Below are positions 45,914 to 59,334 of a DNA stretch of 64,000 nucleotides, piece by piece. The position numbers and the translations under genes are program-made. The notes beneath the pieces were generated by a model that saw only the letters and a list, made by a program, of their open reading frames with translations, searched no databases and had not been told where the DNA came from. The stretch's first letter is position 1, and each line of letters begins with the position of its first letter. Origin of the DNA: an uncultured Methylomirabilota bacterium (GTDB taxonomy: Bacteria; Methylomirabilota; Methylomirabilia; Methylomirabilales; 2-02-FULL-66-22); the NCBI GenBank assembly GCA_963845565.1, contig CAWJSJ010000002.1, forward strand, positions 2,656,001-2,720,000, written 5' to 3'.

Positions 45914-45960
45914 ACACAAGATATAGGGCATAAAGTGTCGGCCTGCCCAAGATGTTGCGC
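45914..45960. promoter_or_regulatory. Tandem NrdR boxes in the nrdJ promoter region
   Basis: ACACAAGATATAGGGC (45914-45929) and GCCCAAGATGTTGCGC (45945-45960), 31 bp apart, just after TTGACA at 45905. Confidence 0.78.
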
Positions 45961-46101
45961 CAAATGGCCTGGGAAGGATCCAGACGAAGGTCGCGGAAGG
46001 ATACCGGGTTCCGGGGGTTCCGACGGGTTCCGGATCCGGTTTTCGGGTGGGTCCGACGCGGGTCGGTCACGAGGTGCTCGATAGGTATGGAGGAAGTTGC
46101 T

Positions 46102-48427
46102 ATGGCAGAGCTCGCGCGTCCGTTGAAGCAAGGCCAGTGGTCGGAATCCGCGCTGCGGGTCTTGCGGGAACGATATCTGGACCGATCACGCAAGGGCGGT
46201 GGCGACGCGCTGGCGCCAGGCGCCGGAACACGCGAGACTGCCGAGGACATGTGCTGGCGGGTGGCGACGGCCATTGCGAGCGCCGAGGCGACGTGGGGTC
46301 GGACGCCGCAACAGATCCACGAGGCGGCCAGCCAGTTCTACGAGTTGATGGTGGACGGCGCGTTTCTGCCAAATTCCCCCACGCTGATGAACGCCGGCAA
46401 AGACAACGGCCTGCAGTACTCGGCCTGCTTCGTCCTTCCGGTGGGCGACTCCATGGACCAGATCTTCGAGGCCGTCAAGCGCGCCGCCATCATCCACAAG
46501 AGCGGCGGGGGAACCGGATTCGCCTTTTCGCGGCTTCGACCCAAGGATACCGAGGTCCGGTCCACCGGCGGGAAGGCCAGCGGGCCGGTGAGCTTCCTGC
46601 GGGTCTTCAACGGCGCCACCGAGGCGGTCAAGCAGGGCGGCACCCGGCGCGGTGCCAACATGGGCATCCTGAAAGTGGATCACCCGGACATCCTGGAGTT
46701 CATCCACTGCAAGATGGACGGCGGCATCAGCAACTTCAATATCTCCGTGTCGATCACCGAGCCCTTCATGGAGGCCCTGGCAAAGAACGGCGAGTACGAG
46801 TTGCGGGACCCGCACACCCACGAGGTGGCGGGTCGCCTCAAGGCCCGCGAGGTCTTCGACCGCATCGTGAAGGCGGCCTGGCAGACGGGCGATCCCGGTC
46901 TGGTCTTCATCGACCGCGTGAACGGCGGCCCGGCCAATCCGGTCCCGGACCTGGAGACGATCGAGGCCACCAATCCCTGCGGTGAGCAGCCCCTGGCTCC
47001 CAACGACGCTTGTAACCTCGGGTCCATCAATCTGGACAAGTTCGGCCGTCCGGGCGATCCGACGGGGCCGATCGCCTGGGATGCGCTGGAGCGGGCGGTT
47101 CGCCTGGGGGTGCGTTTCCTGGATGACGTGATCCAGGTGAACCCGTACCCCTTGCCGGAGATCATGGACCAGGTCCACCGGAACCGCCGGATCGGTCTCG
47201 GCGTGATGGGCTGGTCGGACCTCCTGATCCAGCTCGGGATTCCCTATGACAGTCAGGCCGCGCTGGATCTGGGCGGCAAGGCCATGGAGTTCATCACCAC
47301 GATCGGCCGGGACGAATCGGCGCGGCTGGCCGAGGAACGGGGTCCGTTCCCGAATTGGTCCAAGAGCATTTACCGGAACGCCCGCCCGCTCCGGAACTCC
47401 ACGGTGACGACCATCGCCCCCACCGGGACGATCAGCATCATCGCCGGCTGCTCGTCGGGGATCGAACCCCTCTTCGCGGTGGCGTACAGCCACATCGTGG
47501 GGGACCGACACCTGACGTTCGTGAATCCCCACTTCGAGGCGGTGGCGCGGAAGCGCGGCTTCTACAGCGAGGCGCTGATGGAGGCGGTGGCGGAGCACGG
47601 GACCGTGCACGACATCGCCGAGGTGCCGGAGGACGTCCGCCGGGTCTTCGTCACCGCGCACGAGATCGCGCCCGAGTGGCACGTCCGCATGCAGGCCGCT
47701 TTCCAAAAGGCCACGGACAATGGCGTCTCCAAGACGATCAACCTGGCCAACTCGGCCACGGTCGAGGACGTCGCCCGGGCCTACCAGATGGCGTATGACC
47801 TGGGATGCCTCGGGATCACGGTCTTCCGGGATGGTTGTAAGTCGGCCCACGGCGGCCAGGTGCTCCACGTCGGGACCGGCGGCGCGGGGGAAGGACGTGC
47901 TGGAAGAGCACGAGGGGGTGGCCCACGTTCCGACGACGGTCAGCCCGCGTCCGCGGACGCTGCGCGGGGTGACGTTCCGGGTGGACACCCCGCTTGGCAC
48001 CGGGTACGTCCACGTGAATCAGAACACCTCGGGGGAGCCGTTCGAGGTCTTTCTGAACGTGGGCAAGGCGGGGAGCGACGTCCAGGCGGACGCCGAGGCG
48101 CTGGGCCGGCTCATCTCGCTGATCCTGCGCATGCCCTCGCCGTTGACGCCGCGCGAACGGGTGGAGGAGATCGTCAAGCAGCTCGACCGGATCGGCGGGC
48201 GCCGCGATGCCGGCATGGGGCCGGGGCGCGTCCGATCCATCCCCGATGCCATCGCGCAGGTCCTGGCGGAGCATACCGGATTGCGCGAGCCGGGCGAGGA
48301 GCACGTCCGGGAGGTTCGGGAGGGGCGGCCCAAGGCCAGCGACATGTGTCCGGACTGCCAGAACTTCACGCTCGTCTTCGAAGAAGGCTGCCAAAAATGC
48401 CACGTCTGCGGCTTCAGCGAGTGCTAG
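46102..48427 (+). CDS. nrdJ: Class II (adenosylcobalamin-dependent) ribonucleotide reductase with a +1 frameshift at the G5 run 47886-47890
   Basis: FLPNSPTLMNAG, SACFV, RRGANM, TNPCGEQ, TIAPTGT, SKTIN; TSCPD-like domain and CPDC..CHVCGFSEC in second frame; span 2326 = 3n+1. Confidence 0.92.
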
Positions 48428-48436
48428 GGAAGTGAG

Positions 48437-48763: not shown

Positions 48764-49315
48764 ATGTCCATCAAGTCGGATCGGTGGATCACCCGCATGG
48801 CGCGCGAGCATCGGATGATCGAACCGTTCTCGGACAGCCAGGTGCGGAACGGCATCTCCTACGGGGTGTCCTCGTACGGGTACGACATCCGGGTTGCCGA
48901 CGAGTTCAAGATCTTCACCAACGTGAACTCCACGATCGTGGATCCGAAACGGTTCGATGAGCAGTCGTTCGTGGACTTCAGGGGCGAGGTGTGTCTGGTG
49001 CCGCCCAACTCCTTTGCGCTGGCCCGGACCGTGGAGTACTTCCGGATTCCCCGGAGTGTCCTGACCCTGTGCCTCGGGAAATCCACCTATGCCCGGTGCG
49101 GGATCATCGTGAACGTGACCCCCTTCGAACCCGAGTGGGAGGGGACGGCGACCCTGGAGATCAGCAACACCACGCCGCTCCCGGCCAAGATCTACGCCAA
49201 CGAGGGGATCGCCCAGGTGATCTTTTTCGAATCCGATGAAGTCTGTCAGACGTCGTACGCGGACAAGAAGGGAAAGTACCAGGCCCAGCGCGCCATCACG
49301 CTCCCGAAGATTTGA
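48764..49315 (+). CDS. dcd: dCTP deaminase
   Basis: [40 protein letters not shown]. Confidence 0.96.
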
Positions 49316-49369
49316 TGATGCGCCGCGTGGGATCTGGTGCTGATTGCTGACGGCGCCGATTCGCTGCTG

Positions 49370-49470
49370 AGGAGCCGTTACGAAAAAACTGGTCCATTGT
49401 TTGGAATTTCGTTACGGCTCCTTATGCCGTTTCCAAGATTTCTCCGGTCAAGTTATTCTTTGACAACGGC
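49370..49470. repeat. Palindromic MITE/REP-like element, copy A
   Basis: Arms AGGAGCCGTTACGAAA (49370-49385) / TTTCGTTACGGCTCCT (49407-49422), 15/16 complementary; 49443-49470 matches the reverse complement of 52226-52253 at 27/28. Confidence 0.75.
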
Positions 49471-49488
49471 CTTCCTCCGAGGGACGCC

Positions 49489-49701
49489 ATGAAGATCGAG
49501 ATCGACGCTGCGCATGATCTGGTCAAGGTCAATCTCCTTGCGGACGTGCCCGTCGCAGAGTCGAAGGAGACCGAGGGCATGGTCTTCGGCTATGCGGCCG
49601 ACCGCCGCATCGTCCAGATCGAGATCCGCGGCGCCAAGAGCCGGATCAACGGCGAGCTCCTGAAACTGATCGACCCCGCCTTCGCCCGATCCGCGGCCTG
49701 A
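49489..49701 (+). CDS. DUF2283-like small protein
   Basis: MKIEID..D...ESKE..GMVFGY...IVQIEI pattern, 70 aa. Confidence 0.7.
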   Translation: MKIEIDAAHDLVKVNLLADVPVAESKETEGMVFGYAADRRIVQIEIRGAKSRINGELLKLIDPAFARSAA

Positions 49702-50021
49702 CCCCGACGACCCCGCCCTCCATGCGGTAATCGCGCGGCGCCGCGTGAGCCGTCCAGCAGGACCAATCCTGAATTCCCCTTGACACTCCGAGTGGGGGTG
49801 GGGCATGCTGCGCTACCCAGGGGGGCACGGCTCCGCGATTCACGGCCGGTCGGGTCGAGGTTGCCTGAGTCGTCCGCCGCGGCAAACATAAACCATGCAC
49901 CGTTTCGCTCTGTGCGGGATCCCCGGGACGACGCGTTCGACGGCGCCGCACCGGGGAGACCTGTATTCACGGCCGAGACTTGCGAGCGTTGACCGAACAG
50001 GGGAGACAAGGAGGGGACACG

Positions 50022-50306
50022 ATGGCGGGACTGGACTTCAAGGCGCCGGTGGCGAGGGAGCAGGAGGATGCGGCGATTGTCGCCCACAACACGCGCATGG
50101 GCGTGATCCTGTTCGTCGTCTATGTCGCGTTCTACGGAGGGTTCATGGCCCTGAGCGCGTTTTGGACCGAGCTGATGAGCGTGCCCGTTCTGGGCGGGGT
50201 AAATCTGGCCGTGGTCTATGGGTTCGCGCTGATCGCCGCCGCGCTGCTCCTGGCGCTGGTCTACATGCGGGTGTGCCGCAAGTCGAAGGAGGGGGGCTCG
50301 AAATGA
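50022..50306 (+). CDS. DUF485 (YjcH-like) small membrane protein
   Basis: Two TM, GGVNLAVVYG; AAGGAGG SD; ATGA overlap with actP. Confidence 0.85.
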   Translation: MAGLDFKAPVAREQEDAAIVAHNTRMGVILFVVYVAFYGGFMALSAFWTELMSVPVLGGVNLAVVYGFALIAAALLLALVYMRVCRKSKEGGSK

Positions 50307-52225
50307 TCCACGAGACCTCCTGGATTGCCGTCCTGATCTTCCTATTCTTCGCCGGATCCGTCCTGGGCATCAGCTTCTACCTGGGTTCGCGCGCCAAATC
50401 GGCCAGCGGGTACTTCGCCGCCGGCGGCGGCATCCACTGGGCCGTCAACGGGGTGGCGTTTGCCGGGGACTACCTGTCGGCGGCCTCGTTTCTCGGCATC
50501 TGCGGGATGATTGCCTTCTTCGGCTACGACGGGTTCCTGTACTCCATCGGGTACCTCGCCGGGTGGATCGTGGCGTTGTTCATCATCGCCGAGCCGCTGA
50601 AGCGGCTGGGGCGATACACCTTTGCCGACGCGCTGGACAATCAATTCAACTCCCGCGGCATCAAGCTGGCGGCGGCCATCAGCACGCTGGTGGTCAGTTG
50701 CTTCTATCTGATCCCGCAGATGGTGGGAGCCGGGGCCCTGGTGCAGCCGCTCCTGGGATTCCCGCACTATGTGGGCGTGATCGTGGTGGGCTGCGTGGTG
50801 ACGCTGATCGTCACGACGGCGGGCATGGTCTCGACCACCTGGGTGCAGTTCATCAAGGGAACGATGTTGGTCCTCCTGTGCGCGTTCATCACGGTGCTGA
50901 TCCTGCTCCGGGGCGTCACGACCCGGCCGACGGATGCCGACGGCCGCGAGGTGCGGATCGCGAAACGCGGCGTGCCGGCCGCCGAGGTCACAGGTGCGGC
51001 CGGGGTGCAGGTCTTGGCCGAGGAGGGCGCCTGGCGCGGCAAGCCCTATGTGCGCATCAAGAGCGCCGCCGGCCCGGTGGCGGTCTGGCGCAAGGACGGT
51101 GATCTGCTGTCCGAGACCCAGACGATCACGGCGCAGCAGGACGGGCGGAAGCTGGTCAATGGGCGGCCGCGGGGCAAGGGGCCGGGCGAGGCGGATCTCT
51201 CGCCGGTGGGCTATGCGTCGAAGCTGCCCAACGGCGTGGAGCGAACCGGCGCCATCGGCCCGCTGGCGTTCTTGCAGACCATGCAGGAGAGTGACGTCAT
51301 CCAGTGGGCGCCCGAGAAAATTGTCGAGTCGGATGGCAGCGTGACGACGGTGTTTTCCCAGCGGGTGGCCTCGGGCAAGGATTTCATGACGCCCGGCTCC
51401 AGCCCCACCTTCAAGAAGGTCCGCAGCGCGAAGCTGTTCGACAAGCTCGATTTTCTGTCCCTGATGCTGGCGCTGTTCTGCGGCACGGCGTCCCTGCCGC
51501 ACATCCTGATTCGGTATTACACGGTCAAGGACCAGATCAGCGCCCGGAAGAGCACGGTGGTGGGGATCGCGGCCATCGGCTTCTTCTACGTGCTGACGCT
51601 CTACCTCGGGCTGGGAGCGATGACCAGCGGAGCGTTGGACATCACCGATTCCAACATGTCGGCCCCCCTCCTGGCCCGCAGCTTCAGCGAGCTGCTGTTC
51701 GCGGTGCTGTCGGCCGTGGCCTTCACCACGGTGCTGGGGACGGTGAGCGGCCTGATCATGGCCGCCAGCGGCGCCGTGGCGCACGATCTGATGACCAACT
51801 TCCTTCAGATGAAACTGGACGAGTTCCAGAAGGTGCGCGCCGCCAAGATCGCCGCGATGTGCGTGGGGGTGGTGGCCATCGTGCTGGGGATCCTGTTCGC
51901 CAGGATGAACGTCAACTTCCTGGTCGGGTGGGCGTTTAACATCGCCGCCTCGGCCAATCTTCCCGCGCTGGTGATGCTCCTGTTCTGGAAGCGGACGACC
52001 AAGGAAGGCATCACCGCCGCCATCATCGTCGGGATGCTGTCGTCCCTGGGATGGATCCTGCTGAGCGCGCAGGCCTTCAGCGACGTCTACGGTTTGAATC
52101 CGGCGAACGCCATCGTGCCCTTCAGTCAGCCGGCGATCGTGACGATCCCGTTGGGTTTCTTGGTGCTGATCGTGGTCTCGCTCTTCACGAAGCCCGCTCG
52201 GGTTTCGGCGGTGGTCGCTCGGTAA
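50303..52225 (+). CDS. actP: Cation/acetate symporter, ActP-like (SSS family), with a large soluble insertion
   Basis: NGVAFAGDYLSAASFLG, YLIPQMVGAG, TTWVQFIK, GTASLPHILIRYYTV, AASANLP. Confidence 0.88.
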   Translation: MIHETSWIAVLIFLFFAGSVLGISFYLGSRAKSASGYFAAGGGIHWAVNGVAFAGDYLSAASFLGICGMIAFFGYDGFLYSIGYLAGWIVALFIIAEPLKRLGRYTFADALDNQFNSRGIKLAAAISTLVVSCFYLIPQMVGAGALVQPLLGFPHYVGVIVVGCVVTLIVTTAGMVSTTWVQFIKGTMLVLLCAFITVLILLRGVTTRPTDADGREVRIAKRGVPAAEVTGAAGVQVLAEEGAWRGKPYVRIKSAAGPVAVWRKDGDLLSETQTITAQQDGRKLVNGRPRGKGPGEADLSPVGYASKLPNGVERTGAIGPLAFLQTMQESDVIQWAPEKIVESDGSVTTVFSQRVASGKDFMTPGSSPTFKKVRSAKLFDKLDFLSLMLALFCGTASLPHILIRYYTVKDQISARKSTVVGIAAIGFFYVLTLYLGLGAMTSGALDITDSNMSAPLLARSFSELLFAVLSAVAFTTVLGTVSGLIMAASGAVAHDLMTNFLQMKLDEFQKVRAAKIAAMCVGVVAIVLGILFARMNVNFLVGWAFNIAASANLPALVMLLFWKRTTKEGITAAIIVGMLSSLGWILLSAQAFSDVYGLNPANAIVPFSQPAIVTIPLGFLVLIVVSLFTKPARVSAVVAR

Positions 52226-52282
52226 GCCGTTGTCAAGGAATAACTTGACCGGAAATGGACCAAGGATTTCGTAACTGCGCCT
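52226..52282. repeat. MITE/REP-like element, copy B (inverted relative to copy A)
   Basis: Begins immediately after the actP TAA stop; reverse complement aligns to 49370-49398 (23/29) and 49443-49470 (27/28). Confidence 0.75.
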
Positions 52283-52373
52283 GATCGCGGGGCCGCCCCG
52301 CGATCCCACACGTTACCACGGCCGGCTTGGAGCACTCGCTCCGGGCCGGCCGTTTCTTTCGGGCGGGGCGGGG

Positions 52374-53168
52374 TCAGGGCGGTGGGGCGCTCGGATCGGC
52401 AGGGCACATCAGGAGCCGCTGCTCTTCGGTATCCCAGATCACCATGGTGCGGCACGGCGAGTCCAGATCGTCGCCGAGACAGACGAAGCGGGTGCCTTCG
52501 ATGACGACGTCGTGCGGGCGATGAAAGTGGCCGAACACCCACACCCGCGGCGTGTAGGCGAGGTCGCACCAGAGCCGGCTCAGCTCCACTTCGCCGCGGT
52601 CGTGCTCCGGCCCGGGATCGAACCCCGCCCCCCGGATGTGCTCCGCGACGCCGGGTTCCAGCGCGGGCGCGCCGTGCAGCCCGATCCCGATCCGCGACGG
52701 GCAGGAATGGGTCACGATGAGTTGCGGCCGATGCCGGTTGAACAGCGCGGTGGCGTGCTCCCGGTTGCGCCGCAAGATGTAGTTGGGGAAACCGCTCAGC
52801 CAGTTATGCTTCTGCGGACGGTCCACATGCAAGGCGCCGCCCAGGAAGCCCACCATCGAGGCGCCGAGGGGTGTAACCGACGGACGGGGTTGATAGACCA
52901 GATTCTGCTCGCGCTTCCAGACGCGGCCGGCGCCGGTGAGCAGGGCCCGGCGCAGCCAGCGGTGGTCCTCGTGGTTGCCGTCGATCACGTGCAGGGGGAC
53001 CGGATACCGAACGGTGTCCTCGCGAGCGCGGCCCAGGCGGTCCCGGTAGAATCCGAAATCCCCGACCTGGATGGCGGCCTCGACCCGAAAATCCACCTGG
53101 GCCTGCCGCAGGATCTCGGCCAGCCGCCGATGCCGACCATGCACGTCGCCGACCACGAGCACGCGCAT
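52374..53168 (-). CDS. Calcineurin-like metallophosphoesterase
   Basis: GDVHG, GDFG, GNHE, THS and GHFH motifs; 4 bp downstream of the nucleotidyltransferase gene. Confidence 0.9.
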   Translation of the reverse strand: MRVLVVGDVHGRHRRLAEILRQAQVDFRVEAAIQVGDFGFYRDRLGRAREDTVRYPVPLHVIDGNHEDHRWLRRALLTGAGRVWKREQNLVYQPRPSVTPLGASMVGFLGGALHVDRPQKHNWLSGFPNYILRRNREHATALFNRHRPQLIVTHSCPSRIGIGLHGAPALEPGVAEHIRGAGFDPGPEHDRGEVELSRLWCDLAYTPRVWVFGHFHRPHDVVIEGTRFVCLGDDLDSPCRTMVIWDTEEQRLLMCPADPSAPPP

Positions 53169-53172
53169 GGGC

Positions 53173-55695
53173 TCAGACCGTCCGCGCGAAATCGGTCTCC
53201 AGGCGGGCCTGGAACACGGTGATGTCCGCGAAGACCTTCTTCAGCACCGACCGTTCAAGCTGGGTCAACGTCTGCAAGTCGATGGCGTTGTCCGGGACGA
53301 GGCCGTGGTTGATCTGGGCCGCCTGGTGCGTCAGCCGCATCTGCATCAGGGTGGTGTAGGCCTGGACCAGCTCGTCGTGGCTGGATGGCAGCAGCACGCC
53401 CTGATCCCGCAGGTGCCGCAGCCGCTCGAGGGTGTTCGTCTCCGCCAGGCGGTGCTGCAGGGCATACATCCGTGCAAAGTTCACCAGCGGGATGATGGCC
53501 GTCTTGATGTTGAAAGCGGCGGAGCGTTCGCCGGACGATTCCAGCTGGATGGTTCCGAAGAAGCCGCGGGGCGGCTTGAATTGCAGGGTGCTCTGGGCCA
53601 GGTGGAAGAAAAAGACGTGTCTGCCGTCGTCGTCCAGGGCGCCGTGCAGGTGGCGACGCAGCTCCCGCACGTAATCGGCCTGGCCGTAGGCGCAGCGGAA
53701 ATCGAAGAACACGTTGACGTCCAGCAGGTCCTGGGGCCGCGCCGCCGCCACGCACTCGGTGAAGTACCGCCGCCACGCGGACAGGGGTTGACACCACTTG
53801 GGGTTGGAGGCCATCACGTCCCCCTTGCAGCGTCGGTAGCCCACCAGATCCAGCCAGCCGCAGACCGTGTCACCGAGCCGCAAGAAATACGCCTGGGCCG
53901 CCGCGGTCCGCTCCGGGTCGCCGTCGGAAAAAATGATGGCGTTGTCCTGGTCGGTGGCCAGGGTTTGCTCCTCCCGCGCCTCGCTGCCCAGCACGACGAA
54001 GGCGAAGGCGACCGGGGGTGGGCCGAGGTCGGCTTCGGCCAACTCGATGAGCCGCACCAGGATGGCATCGGACACGGTGGTCATGATCCGGGTGACGCTC
54101 TCGACCCGGGCGCCGCTCTCCAGGAGTGCCTTGACGAACACCGGAAGCTTGGCGCGGCTGTCCTTCAATTCCTCGGGGGACCGCGCCTCCTGGATCTCGC
54201 CGAGCAATGCCGCGATCGCGTGTCGTTGCGCATGGAGGATCTCCGTGCCGATCAGGACCCCCAGCGTGGCGCCGCGCTCGTCGGTGACCACCAGATGCTG
54301 TATCCCGTGTTCCTGCATCAGGAGCGCGGCTTCGAACAGCAGCGCGTGATCGGCGATGCGCACCAGAGGGGCGCTCATGATGGTGGAGACGGGCTGGACG
54401 GCGTCGCGCGCCAAGGCCAGCACGCGGTTGCGCAGGTCCTGGTCGGTGACCATGCCGATCGGCTCGCCGCCCGGGCCGGTGACCAGGATGGCGCTGCTCT
54501 TCGCGCGCGCCATGGTTGCCACCGCTTTGTGGATCGGCGTGTCCAGCCCGCAGGTCACCAACGTCAGCGGCATGGACTTGATGGAGCGCGTGGCCAGCGG
54601 CAGCATGCTCTGCAGGTCGGCGACCAGACGAGCGAGCGTCTCCTCGGTCTGTTTGCGGGTCGCCACATCCCGGATGGAGAGGATCTGGCCGGGCCGATCC
54701 CCGATCCGGACGGGGCCGACCGTGAGGAGGACATCGGTCACCTCGCCGTTCTTGTGGAGGAGCTGGGCGCGCCGCTCCGTGGCCGGCTCGGTCGGGCTTC
54801 CGTTGGGGAGCGAGGCGATGATCTTCTCCAGCGGCAGTTGGGCCAGTTCCTGTTCCGTGTACCCCAGGCGGTTCCGCAGGGTTGTGTTCGCATAGACGGG
54901 GCGCTCCTGCATCACCAGCAGGATGCTCTCGGTGGTGCCCTCCACCAGCAGCCGATACTTTTCTTCCGAGCCGCGCAACGCCGTTTCCGCGCGCCACCGA
55001 CGGCGCTCGAGGTTCAGCCCCTGCTTGGCGATGTACGCCAGGAGCCCGGCGATGACGACGGAGATCCCGACGGACACCTGCAGGGCGCGGCGGATGATCG
55101 CGTTGATCTCCGCGCGCACGTCTTCCATGTAGATGCCGGTCCCCACCACCCAGCCCCAGGGCGCGAAGCCTTTGACGTAGGACAGCTTGGGCACCACGCG
55201 CGTCTCATCGTCCTTCCACTGCCAGAGATACTCGACGTAGCCGTCGCCGCGCTCCCGGACGGTCTGGGCAAATTCGACGAACAGCTTCTTGCCCGCCGGG
55301 TCGGCATAATCCGAGAGACTCTGTCCGTCCAAATCCGGGCGGTAGGGGTGCATCACCATCCGGGGGCTGAGGTCCTGGATCCAGAAGTAGTCCTTGCCGT
55401 CGTCCCCGAAACGCAGATGTCGGACCCGCGCCGCCGCCGCCTGCTGGGCGGCCGCCCGGCTGAGCGTCCCGCGCTGCTCCTCTGCGTGGAGGGCGGCGAG
55501 ATCGCTCCAGGCGGCCTGGGTGAGCTCGCGGAGCATCTCCTTCTTCCGCTCGACGATGTTCTTCTTCATCGTCGGGATGATGACCGCAAAGATCAGGACC
55601 AGAAACAGCGTGAAGGTGAGGATGGCGGGGGAGATGATGTTGACGGCGAAGTGCCGCCAATGCGGTCGCGGGTACGGCGCCCGGTTACCGTCCAT
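53173..55695 (-). CDS. Membrane sensor nucleotidyltransferase: TM-sCache-TM-PAS-like-CBS pair-DUF294/DUF294_C
   Basis: YFWIQD..MVMHPY..PKLSYV..WGWVVGTGIY (single Cache), SEEKYRLLVE (PAS entry), IGMVTDQDLR..IMSAPL (CBS), LGSEAREEQTLATDQDNA and CKGDVMASNPKWC, FFDFR (DUF294). Confidence 0.88.
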   Translation of the reverse strand: MDGNRAPYPRPHWRHFAVNIISPAILTFTLFLVLIFAVIIPTMKKNIVERKKEMLRELTQAAWSDLAALHAEEQRGTLSRAAAQQAAAARVRHLRFGDDGKDYFWIQDLSPRMVMHPYRPDLDGQSLSDYADPAGKKLFVEFAQTVRERGDGYVEYLWQWKDDETRVVPKLSYVKGFAPWGWVVGTGIYMEDVRAEINAIIRRALQVSVGISVVIAGLLAYIAKQGLNLERRRWRAETALRGSEEKYRLLVEGTTESILLVMQERPVYANTTLRNRLGYTEQELAQLPLEKIIASLPNGSPTEPATERRAQLLHKNGEVTDVLLTVGPVRIGDRPGQILSIRDVATRKQTEETLARLVADLQSMLPLATRSIKSMPLTLVTCGLDTPIHKAVATMARAKSSAILVTGPGGEPIGMVTDQDLRNRVLALARDAVQPVSTIMSAPLVRIADHALLFEAALLMQEHGIQHLVVTDERGATLGVLIGTEILHAQRHAIAALLGEIQEARSPEELKDSRAKLPVFVKALLESGARVESVTRIMTTVSDAILVRLIELAEADLGPPPVAFAFVVLGSEAREEQTLATDQDNAIIFSDGDPERTAAAQAYFLRLGDTVCGWLDLVGYRRCKGDVMASNPKWCQPLSAWRRYFTECVAAARPQDLLDVNVFFDFRCAYGQADYVRELRRHLHGALDDDGRHVFFFHLAQSTLQFKPPRGFFGTIQLESSGERSAAFNIKTAIIPLVNFARMYALQHRLAETNTLERLRHLRDQGVLLPSSHDELVQAYTTLMQMRLTHQAAQINHGLVPDNAIDLQTLTQLERSVLKKVFADITVFQARLETDFARTV

Positions 55696-55769
55696 GGGCT
55701 ACCGGCGGGACGAAGGGTTCCCGTCGGTGCGCCGCGACGCAGGTGCGCGACGATCTCATGAAGTCCTCC

Positions 55770-57404
55770 TTATTTGGAGAAGACCGGATCTTCCCTGGTG
55801 ATGATCTCCAGGAGCGCGGGGCGGCCACCGTCGGCGGCCTGCAGGGCGCGCTTCGTCGCGGGAATGATCTCGGCCGGCTTCTCCACCCTTTCGGCGTAGG
55901 CCCCCAGCCCCGCTGCCACCGTGGCGTAGTCGCCGGACAGGAAGCGGGTCCCGTACCGCTCCGTGGCGATGGGGATGTGCTTGTCGTAACCACCCATGCA
56001 GGAGTTGTTCAGGAGCACGGTCACGGTGCCGATCTTGTTTCGGACGGCCGTCTCCAGATCCATGCCGCACTGCCCAAAGGCGGCGTCGCCCAGCACGTGG
56101 AGGACGGTTGCGTCCGGCCTGGCCACCTTGGCCCCCAGGGCGAGGGGGAGGCTGTAGCCAAGATGGGTGGAGCGGCCCCACCCGATGTAGCTGTTGGGCG
56201 TCCGCGCCGTCCAGAAGGGGGTCATCTGATCGCGGGGGTTGCCGGCGTCGTGCGTCACGATCACGTCGCGCTGCGCCACCGCCTGCTGCAGATCCCAGAC
56301 CACCCGATAGGGGTTGATGGGCACCTCGGCGGACGTGAGCCGCGGCATCCATTCGGCCAGCCACTCGGTCTTGATGGTGCGAATCTGCCGGGCGGTCCGG
56401 TCGTCGCCCTTCCGGCCGTCGGGGCCCAGGAGCCGCTTGGCTTCCTCGATCATCTGTCGGAGCGTCAGCTTGGCGTCGCCCACCAGGAGGTGCTGGGCGA
56501 CGTAGTCCTTGTTCAGGTCTTTGTCGTCCACGGTGAGCTGGATACCCACCTTGCCCTTCGGGATCGGGGCCGCGAAGCTGGAGATCGAGAGGCTCGCGCC
56601 GGCGCCGAAGACGAGATCGGCGTCGGCCAGGAACCGGGACACAGCCCGCGGCCAGGCCATCCCGCCGCTACCGATGGACAGCGGGTGATCCTCGGGGAAG
56701 GCGCTCTTTCCGGACAAGGTGGTCATGACGGGCGCCTGGAGCAGTTCGGCCAGCTCCACGAGTTCGGCGGACGCCTCGGCGTACAGGGTCCCGAGGCCCG
56801 CGTGGATGAGGGGGCACCGGGCGGCGACCATGGCGGTGACAGCGGCCGCGACATCAGCTGGCGCTGCCATGGAACGCGTCCCCCGGACAGGCTGGTAGTG
56901 GGTCGCCGCCTCGTCCGCATCGGACAGCATCACGTCCCAGGGCAACTCCAGGGCCACCGGTCCGGGTCGTCCGGTCCGCAAGTAGGTGAAGGCCCGCCGC
57001 AGGAACTCCGGGACCCGCTCGGTGCGATTGACCCGGGCGACCCATTTGGTGATGTGCTGGAAATTGAGGACCGCGTCGAAGTTCGGCCGGACGCCCGTCC
57101 GCGTCTCCGGCGCGCCGCCCGGCAGGCAGAGGATCGGCGTGGAATCGGAGAAGGCCTGCGCGATCCCCCCGAAGGCGTTCTCGGTCCCGGGGCCGTACTG
57201 CATGGTGCAGACGCCGATCTTCCGTCCGTTGGTCACTCGGGTATACCCGTCCGCCATGCCCACCACGGTGCGCTCGGTCCGCGCCATGATGGGACGGATG
57301 CCCAGTTCGGCGCAGGCGTCGATCACCTGGTGGATGGGAAAGCAGAAGAGGTGCTCGACCCCTTCTCGCTGCAAGATCCTCGCAACCGCCGCCGCTGCTT
57401 TCAT
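55770..57404 (-). CDS. Thiamine pyrophosphate-dependent enzyme (acetolactate synthase-like superfamily)
   Basis: RTERTVVGMADGY, GPG, GRPGPVALELP, GDAAF...LNN TPP-binding motif. Confidence 0.9.
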   Translation of the reverse strand: MKAAAAVARILQREGVEHLFCFPIHQVIDACAELGIRPIMARTERTVVGMADGYTRVTNGRKIGVCTMQYGPGTENAFGGIAQAFSDSTPILCLPGGAPETRTGVRPNFDAVLNFQHITKWVARVNRTERVPEFLRRAFTYLRTGRPGPVALELPWDVMLSDADEAATHYQPVRGTRSMAAPADVAAAVTAMVAARCPLIHAGLGTLYAEASAELVELAELLQAPVMTTLSGKSAFPEDHPLSIGSGGMAWPRAVSRFLADADLVFGAGASLSISSFAAPIPKGKVGIQLTVDDKDLNKDYVAQHLLVGDAKLTLRQMIEEAKRLLGPDGRKGDDRTARQIRTIKTEWLAEWMPRLTSAEVPINPYRVVWDLQQAVAQRDVIVTHDAGNPRDQMTPFWTARTPNSYIGWGRSTHLGYSLPLALGAKVARPDATVLHVLGDAAFGQCGMDLETAVRNKIGTVTVLLNNSCMGGYDKHIPIATERYGTRFLSGDYATVAAGLGAYAERVEKPAEIIPATKRALQAADGGRPALLEIITREDPVFSK

Positions 57405-57480: not shown

Positions 57481-59334
57481 TCATCGCGCCGCGTCGATCA
57501 TTTCGACCAGGCGGCGGTCCACGTGCTGCGTGACCTGAGCCAAGAGCGCGTGCGCGTCCTCCAGGAGCGACCCGCACGAGTTCCGCATGTCTCGCACGAA
57601 GGCGGTATCCGTGATGTCCTTCAAGTTAATGAGAACGTTCCAAATTGCCCCCCGGACCCCCGCGTAGCCTATCTGCGCGCCGACAGCTCCGTCGGTGAGA
57701 GAATTGACGTTACCGTGCTCGACGACGGCCCAGGCGGACTGCATCGCTACGAAGCTGGCCAGCGCCGTCTGGTACGGAACGTTGACCGCCCGCTTCAACC
57801 CGAGCTGCATGCTGGCCTCGCGATGCGCCTGCTCCTCGGGGGTGTTGGCGGCGAGCCGCCGCGCTTCCATATAGGCGGTGAAGGCGTTGGTGTCTTCGTC
57901 CACTGCGAGGATGAGCTGCTCCTTCACCCGCTGTGCGGCCTCCGCGGCTTCGAGCAGCGCCGCGGCGGTGGCGGGAGACTCGACCTTGTCCTGCCACAGG
58001 TTGGCCACCATGGACGCCAGCGCCGCGGCCAGGGCGCCTGCCAGCGCCGCCACCGATCCGCCGCCCGGCGCTGGCGTATCCCGGGAGACTTCGTCGGTGA
58101 AGTTCCGGACCGACATCGCGGCGAGGCCGTTGGCGAACTCCCGCGGCAAGCCGATCACCTTCTTCGCGAGGTCGAAGGGCGCGATGTCCGACAGGCCCAT
58201 GGAGAACGCCGCGGCCTGCAGGATGTCGGGTATCGGAACGAAGGGGGACTTGCCCTGGGCCTTGAGGTAATACCGGCCGGCCTCCAGGAGGGCAGGGTAG
58301 GGGATCAGACCCACGACCTCGCTCCCCGTCACGACGAGCCCGCGCTGGACAGCGAGCCGTCGAGCTTCTTCCAGGACCAGGTGCGGCGGCGTGGTCTTGT
58401 AGTTGGTGAGGTTGATGGAGATCTGCGCCCGCTTGTACTCGTCCACGTACCAGCCGATCGCCTTGCAGTGGGTGAACTTCCCCGCCCGGTAGACCTTGCG
58501 CCCCTCCAACAGATGCGACGGATCGATGTCGTTCAGGCGCAGGAGGTTCTCCAGGTCGTAGCCGTGCGCCTCGCGGCAGTGGCCGACCGTCTCGGCGAAT
58601 GTCCCGCCGACGAATTCGCAGTTCCCGCACGGGTAGGCGTTCTCGCGGTAGATGAGGATCCTTCCCCGGGAATAATTGGACGATGGCGTCGCGGCACGCG
58701 CCACGCGGCCCTTCTCGCGCAGCTCGAACGCGATGTCGGTCGCCAGCGCCTTGTCGCGGGTGTTGAGCGTCACGTTGTAGGCGATCAGGAACTCGCGGGC
58801 GCCGATGACGGTGGCCCCGGCCTTCGGGTTGAACCGGGCCGGGCCGAAATCCGGCGCCCAGTCGGGGTCGCGGAGCTTTTCGGCCAGCCCTTCGTACTCG
58901 CCGCGCCGAATGCCTGCCAGATTCTTTCGCGCGGGCCGAGTCGCCGCCGCTTCGTAGAGGTACACGGGGATCTCGAGTTCGCGGCCGACCCGCTCGCCGA
59001 CCGTCCGCGCGAGCGCGGCGCAGTCGTCCATCGTGAGGCCGGCGATCGGGATGAACGGGCACACGTCGGTGGCGCCCATCCGCGGGTGGGCGCCGTGGTG
59101 CTGGCCCATGTCGAGGACCTGCGCTGCCTTGGCGATCGCCTGGAATGCTCCCTCGGCCACGGCGTCTGGGTCCCCCACGAAGGTGACCACCGTGCGGTTG
59201 GTGTCCGCCCCCGGGTCCACGTCGAGCAAGCGCACACCCGGGACGGCCTCGATGGCGTCCGTGATCTGCTTGATCTTGGCTCGGTCCCGCCCTTCGGAGA
59301 AATTCGGAACGCACTCGACGACGCGCTGATCCAT
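57481..59334 (-). CDS. ftcD: Bifunctional glutamate formimidoyltransferase / formiminotetrahydrofolate cyclodeaminase
   Basis: VECVPNFSEG, NRTVVT, HPRMGATDVCPF, IRRGEYEG, LIAYN; cyclodeaminase PAPGGGSVAAL, NVLINL. Confidence 0.93.
   Translation of the reverse strand: MDQRVVECVPNFSEGRDRAKIKQITDAIEAVPGVRLLDVDPGADTNRTVVTFVGDPDAVAEGAFQAIAKAAQVLDMGQHHGAHPRMGATDVCPFIPIAGLTMDDCAALARTVGERVGRELEIPVYLYEAAATRPARKNLAGIRRGEYEGLAEKLRDPDWAPDFGPARFNPKAGATVIGAREFLIAYNVTLNTRDKALATDIAFELREKGRVARAATPSSNYSRGRILIYRENAYPCGNCEFVGGTFAETVGHCREAHGYDLENLLRLNDIDPSHLLEGRKVYRAGKFTHCKAIGWYVDEYKRAQISINLTNYKTTPPHLVLEEARRLAVQRGLVVTGSEVVGLIPYPALLEAGRYYLKAQGKSPFVPIPDILQAAAFSMGLSDIAPFDLAKKVIGLPREFANGLAAMSVRNFTDEVSRDTPAPGGGSVAALAGALAAALASMVANLWQDKVESPATAAALLEAAEAAQRVKEQLILAVDEDTNAFTAYMEARRLAANTPEEQAHREASMQLGLKRAVNVPYQTALASFVAMQSAWAVVEHGNVNSLTDGAVGAQIGYAGVRGAIWNVLINLKDITDTAFVRDMRNSCGSLLEDAHALLAQVTQHVDRRLVEMIDAAR

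Follow-up and report, generated by a model that had tools for sequence, protein, structure and literature searches.

Within a 64,000-nucleotide stretch of an uncultured Methylomirabilota genome (assembly GCA_963845565.1, contig CAWJSJ010000002.1, positions 2,656,001 to 2,720,000; hereafter, the window), we analysed a four-gene cassette that encodes a putative membrane receptor with a nucleotidyltransferase as its output. The receptor nucleotidyltransferase, a protein of 840 amino acids (aa) encoded at 53173..55695 on the minus strand, was delineated from its open reading frame, Pfam and NCBIfam matches, hydropathy and a model of residues 495–840. The gene for MPE-A, a 264-aa calcineurin-like metallophosphoesterase and our candidate eraser (52374..53168, minus strand; Pfam, alignment and model), starts 4 bp past the transferase stop codon. 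Converging on this pair from the plus strand are the genes for DUF485, a YjcH-like small transporter subunit (50022..50306; Pfam), and for a 640-aa ActP/MctC-like sodium:solute symporter (SSS) of the SSF family (50303..52225; Pfam, NCBIfam and alignment), the candidate target. The subunit role of DUF485 follows bioRxiv 10.1101/072470.

The sequence-only reading of this locus had cautioned that the receptor–transferase fusion might be an assembly chimera. This was ruled out, and the fusion proved to be widespread. The best 120 of 2,672 transferase homologues (62–96% identity) all carry an identical Pfam set; a separate contig, L103, on which MPE-A is 95% identical, holds the four cassette genes in unchanged order; and genome G009 keeps the four-gene order at 96–97% identity, in frameshifted form. 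In addition, contigs of run X7 reach all 30 bins, with one crossing the MPE-A/transferase junction and none of those listed covering the entire stretch. G009 also contains a second, frameshifted Cache-DUF294-like copy (C52:203328-205403) of about 45–54% identity.

Receptor architecture and a probable carboxylate sensor

The domain scan together with the hydropathy profile bore out the predicted order of a transmembrane (TM)-Cache-TM unit, a PAS-like segment, a CBS pair and a DUF294 nucleotidyltransferase. TM1 (residues ~25–43, hydropathy 2.63) and a weak TM2 (about 200–225; hydropathy 1.64 near 200–218) enclose an extracytoplasmic sCache_2 domain (residues 49–202; 55090..55551, minus strand; 135 bits, Pfam cut-off 25). 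The PAS segment (~243–354) scored under the Pfam cut-off (23.1 versus 27) and over that of TIGR00229 (41.8 versus 22.9). It is followed by the CBS pair, matched in two stretches (~376–490; 56.6 bits, cut-off 24), and by the Pfam domains DUF294 (517–654; 53734..54147, minus strand; 161.5 bits, cut-off 21) and DUF294_C (694–836; 146.2 bits, cut-off 22.5). Only CBS1 keeps the GxVTxxD motif, whose G414, V416, T417 and D420 are ≥97% conserved; a short PHP-type relative (L022, the single one scanned) had no CBS match. No kinase, cyclase or methyl-accepting chemotaxis protein (MCP) output domain matched the 840-aa protein, as had been claimed, nor did any HD or ACT domain or any domain for the binding of cyclic nucleotide monophosphates (cNMP).

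By sequence, the solved structures closest to the Cache domain are the carboxylate-binding 4K08 and 5G4Y. Seven ligand-contact residues are common to the sensors PscD, McpP and Adeh_3718 (Y90, W92, H103, F126, Y143, W145 and K156 in PscD numbering; PMC5062169). Their equivalents are identical at all seven positions in the 840-aa protein (Y103, W105, H116, F139, Y156, W158 and K170), in 120/120 homologues and in 55/55 Cache proteins from the loci surveyed below, the last two sets (175 proteins) partly overlapping. Because the whole pocket is identical to that of known sensors, a C2/C3 monocarboxylate, the kind of compound that ActP carries, is the most probable ligand, in keeping with the small-carboxylate sensing suggested earlier. 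The outputs tabulated for Cache receptors in a published census are histidine kinases, MCPs, cyclases/diesterases, phosphatases, kinases, channels and transcription factors (Table 1 of PMC4822843), and the terms 'nucleotidyl' and 'DUF294' are absent from the main text of that census.

The modelled catalytic module resembles GlnE and DrrA

An AlphaFold2 model of residues 495–840, built from a 60-row alignment (pLDDT 90.8), was predicted to be closest to the GlnE N-terminal domain (1v4a; Z 28.0, rmsd 2.7, 307 residues aligned), the GlnE adenylylating domain (3k7d; Z 26.6, rmsd 2.9, 302 aligned) and Legionella DrrA (6yx5; Z 25.3, rmsd 3.7, 300 aligned), with the best match outside this group at Z 9.6 (all VIA). 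These protein (de)AMPylases were also the only matches of the model at Foldseek E≤0.001, and the predicted superposition takes in the Pol-beta-type domain and the helical domains, ~300 residues in all. Both GlnE domains and DrrA act on protein tyrosines. CD-NTases and CCA-adding enzymes were absent from the fold matches listed, which does not exclude them, and GlnE and DrrA stood far above the rest; the terminal uridylyltransferase (TUTase) 3hiy matched the model far less well (TM 0.19, Foldseek). Searches by sequence returned no solved structure for DUF294 at useful E-values.

The GS..DxD motif quoted in the sequence-only reading is intact (G570-S571-x2-R574-x-E576...D582-Q-D584). G570, S571, R574, D582 and D584 are invariant in 356/356 aligned homologues, which were chosen by similarity in partly overlapping sets, and the metal motif aligned to that of the genome's own GlnE with an hhalign probability of 95.9. 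C623, within a GYxxCxG motif (codon 53827-53829, minus strand), is invariant in 357/357 sequences, and D665 is likewise nearly invariant. The wider COG2905/DUF294 family comprises 2,726 clusters at 50% identity (E≤1e-30). The genome encodes separate GlnD and GlnE proteins, ruling out that the receptor substitutes for either.

Unrelated hydrolases share one slot beside the transferase

Species genomes held at least 596 related stretches, of which we surveyed the best 80, assigning neighbours with local hidden Markov models checked against Pfam, and obtained 57 Cache-type and 23 soluble cNMP-type loci. Exactly one phosphoesterase was present in 54 of the 57 Cache-type loci. In 36 it was part of the receptor chain, as an N-terminal PHP domain on the cytoplasmic side (Chloroflexota, Armatimonadota and others), in 13 it was MPE-A, encoded downstream (mostly PVC-group bacteria, one Myxococcota), and in 5 it was a second calcineurin-like family, MPE-B, encoded upstream (Bacteroidota, Ignavibacteriota); metal ligands are intact in all three types. 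None of the 57 carried two hydrolases or a DEDDh gene, which adjoins the transferase in 19/23 cNMP-type loci, and no RNase_T domain (PF00929) was matched in the Methylomirabilota genome. Three Cache-type loci had no phosphoesterase: L019, L045 (a contig of 1.1 kb) and L008, whose genome encodes MPE-A and the transporter away from the L008 contig. A quick tree built from 60 transferase domains groups the Cache forms on one branch (SH-aLRT 97).

The five calcineurin-like motifs reported for MPE-A, including D8, H10, D37, N65, H66, H154, H214 and H216, are invariant in 15/15 aligned sequences. No solved structure was found for it by sequence, and the ESM Atlas returned generic metallophosphoesterase clusters only. 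A reverse survey from MPE-A covered the best 80 of at least 371 loci. Among the 37 closest, 34 had the transferase directly upstream, one was cut by a contig end and two lacked it; among the 43 more distant, many of them short contigs, none had it there. A dedicated, exchangeable and sometimes fused phosphoesterase is what a writer/eraser or a synthase/degrader pair predicts, and finding unrelated hydrolase folds in one slot adds weight to the writer/eraser logic proposed from sequence. In two loci, it is the eraser that appears to receive sensory input: one encodes a PAS-DEDDh protein, hydrophobic at its N-terminus, upstream of a cNMP-type transferase (L016:79-2187), and the other, in Paracoccus, a response regulator with a long exonuclease (L183:6041-7549).

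Under the synthase/degrader alternative, the product of the transferase would be a diffusible signal, a nucleotide or oligonucleotide, that the phosphoesterase, PHP or DEDDh partner degrades and that either the transporter or the CBS domains read. Nucleotide phosphoesterases make up all four partner types, Dbr1 and aq_1956 tie as the closest matches to the MPE-A model (Z 15.6–15.8), and an exchangeable partner suits the degradation of a second messenger as well as it suits an eraser. We nevertheless regard such a signal as improbable, since the catalytic module is predicted to match GlnE and DrrA over ~300 residues that include the helical substrate domain, and the loci share no recurrent regulator, effector or transcription factor. 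The sequence-only reading had left the output as either a nucleotidylated target such as ActP or a nucleotide signal; the modelled GlnE/DrrA fold and the lack of an effector in the cassette favour protein nucleotidylation.

The transferase is linked to sodium:solute symporters

The cassette has the two-subunit arrangement of ActP/MctC systems, an SSF gene with a DUF485 gene upstream. The converging gene pair of the sequence-only reading was confirmed, whereas its label 'acetate permease' stands at family level only, because the symporter scored below the ActP and MctC model cut-offs (390/750, 326/1099 and 408/670 bits, score/cut-off). No solved structure was found for the symporter by sequence. 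An insert of ~140 aa lies between its SSF halves (about 50920-51360, plus strand). Insert-bearing symporters form a separate 31-row clade, whose members in our set all neighbour Cache-type transferases.

Linkage to a phosphoesterase and to DUF485-SSS genes was conserved across the surveyed loci. An SSS gene was present in 49/57 Cache-type loci; of the 8 without one, 4 are short contigs and the other 4 come from genomes that carry an ActP-like gene elsewhere. The neighbouring symporters span four SSS subfamilies, indicating that the linkage survives transporter swaps. Acs, by comparison, adjoins 1/57 Cache-type loci, and no AcsA exceeded the cut-off in the Methylomirabilota genome (161 versus 725 bits), which is 98.7% complete; Acs is thus disfavoured as the target in this genome. 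All five cNMP-type genomes tested carry an ActP-like SSS away from the locus.

A complex prediction that paired ActP residues 1–634 with the catalytic module scored 0.35, against 0.01 for the best of 3 controls, pointing weakly to an interaction; runs agreed in ≥66% of contacts and the partner pLDDT was ≥80. The mark applied was reached by 116/157 solved and 2/215 mismatched pairs, 18 of the solved and both mismatched pairs doing so at scores ≤0.60, and these calibration counts are only roughly valid with custom alignments.

Further gene associations were seen in the survey. In 8/80 loci (L002, L009, L013, L019, L020, L021, L031 and L055), the cassette is accompanied by a gene for a DcaP-like outer-membrane protein; of the two members scanned, one gave a weak DcaP match. 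DUF294 and exonuclease genes also occur, with no SSS within the fetched flanks, amid sugar-degradation glycoside hydrolases in Hymenobacter (L185) and in an alginate/KdgR sugar-degradation cluster in Vibrio (L192).

Published genetics of soluble relatives

The parent family, COG2905, is known, and nucleotidylation of proteins by its members has already been predicted in print (PMC5715377; bioRxiv 10.64898/2026.09.07.749794). In Pseudomonas fluorescens, Pflu5625 was co-regulated with actP, gave no phenotype and was predicted to nucleotidylate proteins (PMC5715377). In P. putida, growth on pyruvate is impaired by deletion of pp_0353 (the exonuclease) or actP-I and not by deletion of pp_0354 (the transferase) (PMC9927547); a later study confirms these phenotypes, adds yjcH deletion as impairing and suggests protein modification (bioRxiv 10.64898/2026.09.07.749794). 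We infer from the P. putida genetics that loss of the eraser would lock the transporter off, while loss of the writer would leave it on. An 'RNase T domain' gene labelled COG2905, one or other member of the pair, was also cofit with DUF4212-type symporters (bioRxiv 10.1101/072470). The literature searched, with subscription journals mostly outside it, yielded no paper on a Cache-DUF294 receptor, NMPylation (transfer of a nucleoside monophosphate, NMP) of ActP or an eraser assignment.

Published guesses for pp_0353 come close to a different substrate, RNA, with the transferase extending RNA ends by added nucleotides, which the partner would remove unless it degraded transcripts instead, thereby tuning transporter expression. 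The authors of PMC9927547 suggested mRNA decay for pp_0353, bioRxiv 10.1101/072470 speculates on expression of the symporter, and the soluble form is indeed paired with an RNase T-like domain. This is very improbable for the module studied here: RNA nucleotidyltransferases rank far lower in the fold comparison, as the TUTase match illustrates, and the exonuclease is replaced by PHP and calcineurin-like folds in the Cache-type loci. Moreover, no His of DUF294_C reaches 90% conservation across the 60-row alignment, the domain does not match the HEPN Rx4-6H RNase motif, and a HEPN survey lists it without that motif (PMC3710099).

A proposed nucleotidylation cycle and its alternatives

On the basis of these observations, we propose that the ActP/DUF485 transporter is the target of a reversible nucleotidylation, written by the receptor and erased by the phosphoesterase, and put the probability of this reading at about 0.55. 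In the proposed cycle, sCache_2 would bind an external C2/C3 carboxylate (acetate, propionate, pyruvate or glycolate), as its identical pocket suggests, and the signal would reach the GlnE/DrrA-like domain by way of TM2, the PAS segment and the CBS pair, where adenine nucleotides may provide a further input. This domain would then transfer an NMP, most probably AMP, to the cytoplasmic face of ActP/DUF485, switching the transporter off; this step draws on the fold, the gene linkage, the genetics of homologues and the weak complex prediction. MPE-A would hydrolyse the protein–NMP phosphodiester and return transport to the on state, a role that the fused PHP, MPE-B or the DEDDh 'exonuclease' might fill in relatives. 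The direction of ligand control is close to evenly balanced. The N-terminal part of the receptor matches MctS, a sensor that raises permease expression, and this match tips us slightly towards a ligand that lowers transferase activity, so that the importer would open when its substrate is present.

Several observations weigh against this proposal, and some of them bear on the acceptor. In the 23 cNMP-type loci, Acs is the favoured neighbour (17/23, versus 9/23 for SSS). By eye, no Tyr, Ser or Thr separated DUF294-linked from unlinked symporters in a 26-sequence alignment, in which the controls were ActP-like proteins from E. coli, Sphingobium, Burkholderia, Bacillus and Nonomuraea, judged to lack DUF294 from the fetched flanks alone. 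The complex prediction passed its mark weakly, with custom alignments and without DUF485. On propionate, transferase and exonuclease mutants of P. alloputida are impaired and the actP mutant is not (bioRxiv 10.64898/2026.09.07.749794); a single-target model does not explain these phenotypes, which call for a second target or another effect. The published genetics also concern the soluble cNMP/DEDDh form rather than the Cache receptor, and the literature searched held no biochemical data for any DUF294 protein. With regard to the chemistry and the partner, the third carboxylate of GlnE aligns, in a low-confidence stretch of the profile alignment, to C623, so that catalysis may differ from that of GlnE. 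At L019, no hydrolase was recognised near the transferase and the genome contains no MPE-A, and the hydrolase label requires only three changes on the transferase tree, leaving few independent swaps.

The neighbouring Acs genes, the propionate phenotypes independent of ActP and the failure to find an acceptor residue on ActP would all suit the same writer/eraser chemistry directed at another protein. That acceptor could be the receptor itself or else a conserved soluble protein, enzyme or regulator, that acts in carboxylate metabolism (in some lineages Acs), and any effect on the transporter would be only indirect. The fold and hydrolase-swap evidence is identical for this version. We consider it somewhat unlikely, as Acs adjoins hardly any Cache-type locus and did not pass the cut-off in the Methylomirabilota genome, the cassette crosses phyla with transporter genes only, PII and glutamine synthetase are served here by their own GlnD and GlnE, and the complex prediction lends weak support to ActP.

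The apparent replacement of the third carboxylate by Cys, combined with weak predicted binding to ActP, would also fit a transferase domain that regulates the transporter by binding alone, as a nucleotide-gated plug, with a separate role for the phosphoesterase. We rate this as highly unlikely, given that the metal-binding DxD is invariant throughout the aligned homologues and that a hydrolase with an intact metal site lies beside or is fused to the transferase in all but three Cache-type loci.

Reversible nucleotidylation of the transporter thus remains our preferred reading. At slightly less than even odds, it would extend to a class of receptor nucleotidyltransferases, one-component transmembrane receptors that directly AMPylate an SLC5/SSS transporter in response to its own external substrate, with the same cycle operating in the widespread soluble COG2905 systems, where the 'RNase T-like exonuclease' would be a protein de-NMPylase. 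If true, nucleotidyl transfer would be added to the outputs known for transmembrane receptors in bacteria, and a solute symporter would be seen to be switched by NMPylation in a reversible manner. The model makes it testable what COG2905/DUF294 proteins, together with the 'exonucleases' that partner them, do within acetate regulons in Pseudomonas and elsewhere among bacteria, and with the receptor form comes a known ligand for controlling the activity in vitro. A further prediction, from the swap pattern, is that nucleotides can be removed from a protein by DEDDh, PHP and calcineurin-like enzymes alike.

Cassette distribution and genomic context

The four genes form a single, patchily distributed cassette. 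In 31 genomes (this one, 18 of the same genus and 12 of the same order, several of them incomplete), the transferase and the transporter co-occur in the same 2; leaving out the unpublished genome G026, one of the negatives, the count is 2/30. The GC and GC3 of the cassette equal those of its flanks, so composition shows no sign of recent transfer.

A 16-bp hairpin with a T tail (52318..52353, plus strand; pattern match only) lies between the converging genes and is a probable terminator, although 4 such sites were found against 3.0 expected and this one is notable by stem length only. No sigma-70 promoter pattern was matched, and Rfam gave no match in 49300-56000. RNA-library contigs X15 and X16, from related strains (~92–99% alike), cover parts of all four genes, which is not proof of transcription. 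A repeat resembling a miniature inverted-repeat transposable element, with a 27-bp core, has copies at 52226-52252 (plus strand), beginning at the actP stop codon, and at 49444-49470 (minus strand). The core occurs 183 times in the genome at ≤4 mismatches and 0 times in a shuffled contig; its copies are preceded by TAA in 116 cases, TGA in 20 and TAG in 8.

Elsewhere in the window, a class II ribonucleotide reductase-like gene (45952-48435, plus strand) is apparently split over two frames near 47720-48000, by a frameshift or a sequencing error. The middle domain of a fused formiminotransferase-cyclodeaminase (57481-59331, minus strand) contains a Cys/His-containing insert.

Comparison with known systems

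The sensory half of the receptor resembles the sCache_2 chemoreceptors PscD, McpP and Adeh_3718, with which it shares the complete ligand pocket, and the sensor kinase MctS, matched by its N-terminal part; it differs from both in having a nucleotidyltransferase as output. With COG2905 proteins (PP_0354, with its partner PP_0353, and Pflu5625), it shares the CBS-DUF294-DUF294_C core, with the CBS pair ahead of the transferase, the pairing with a hydrolase, and a tie to yjcH-actP through linkage or co-regulation. Unlike the canonical form, it has TM-sCache_2-TM-PAS in place of the cNMP domain, and its partner is calcineurin-like (PHP in relatives) rather than RNase T-like DEDDh. GlnE and the AMPylase domain of Legionella DrrA share its predicted ~300-residue fold (Z 25–28), the G-S...D-x-D motif and a C-terminal helical domain, in contrast to an identity of 12–15%, a single transferase domain, a membrane-receptor setting and a Cys at the apparent third-carboxylate position. 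The likeness to GlnD lies in the combination of a writer, a metal-dependent hydrolase as eraser and sensor domains, all three of which PHP-fused relatives hold in one chain. In GlnD, the HD domain has the eraser (uridylyl-removing) role; the receptor, by contrast, lacks HD and ACT domains and carries an extracytoplasmic sensor. Taken together, these comparisons identify a member of the DUF294 family, distinct from canonical COG2905, that probably works like a membrane-receptor version of GlnD/GlnE.

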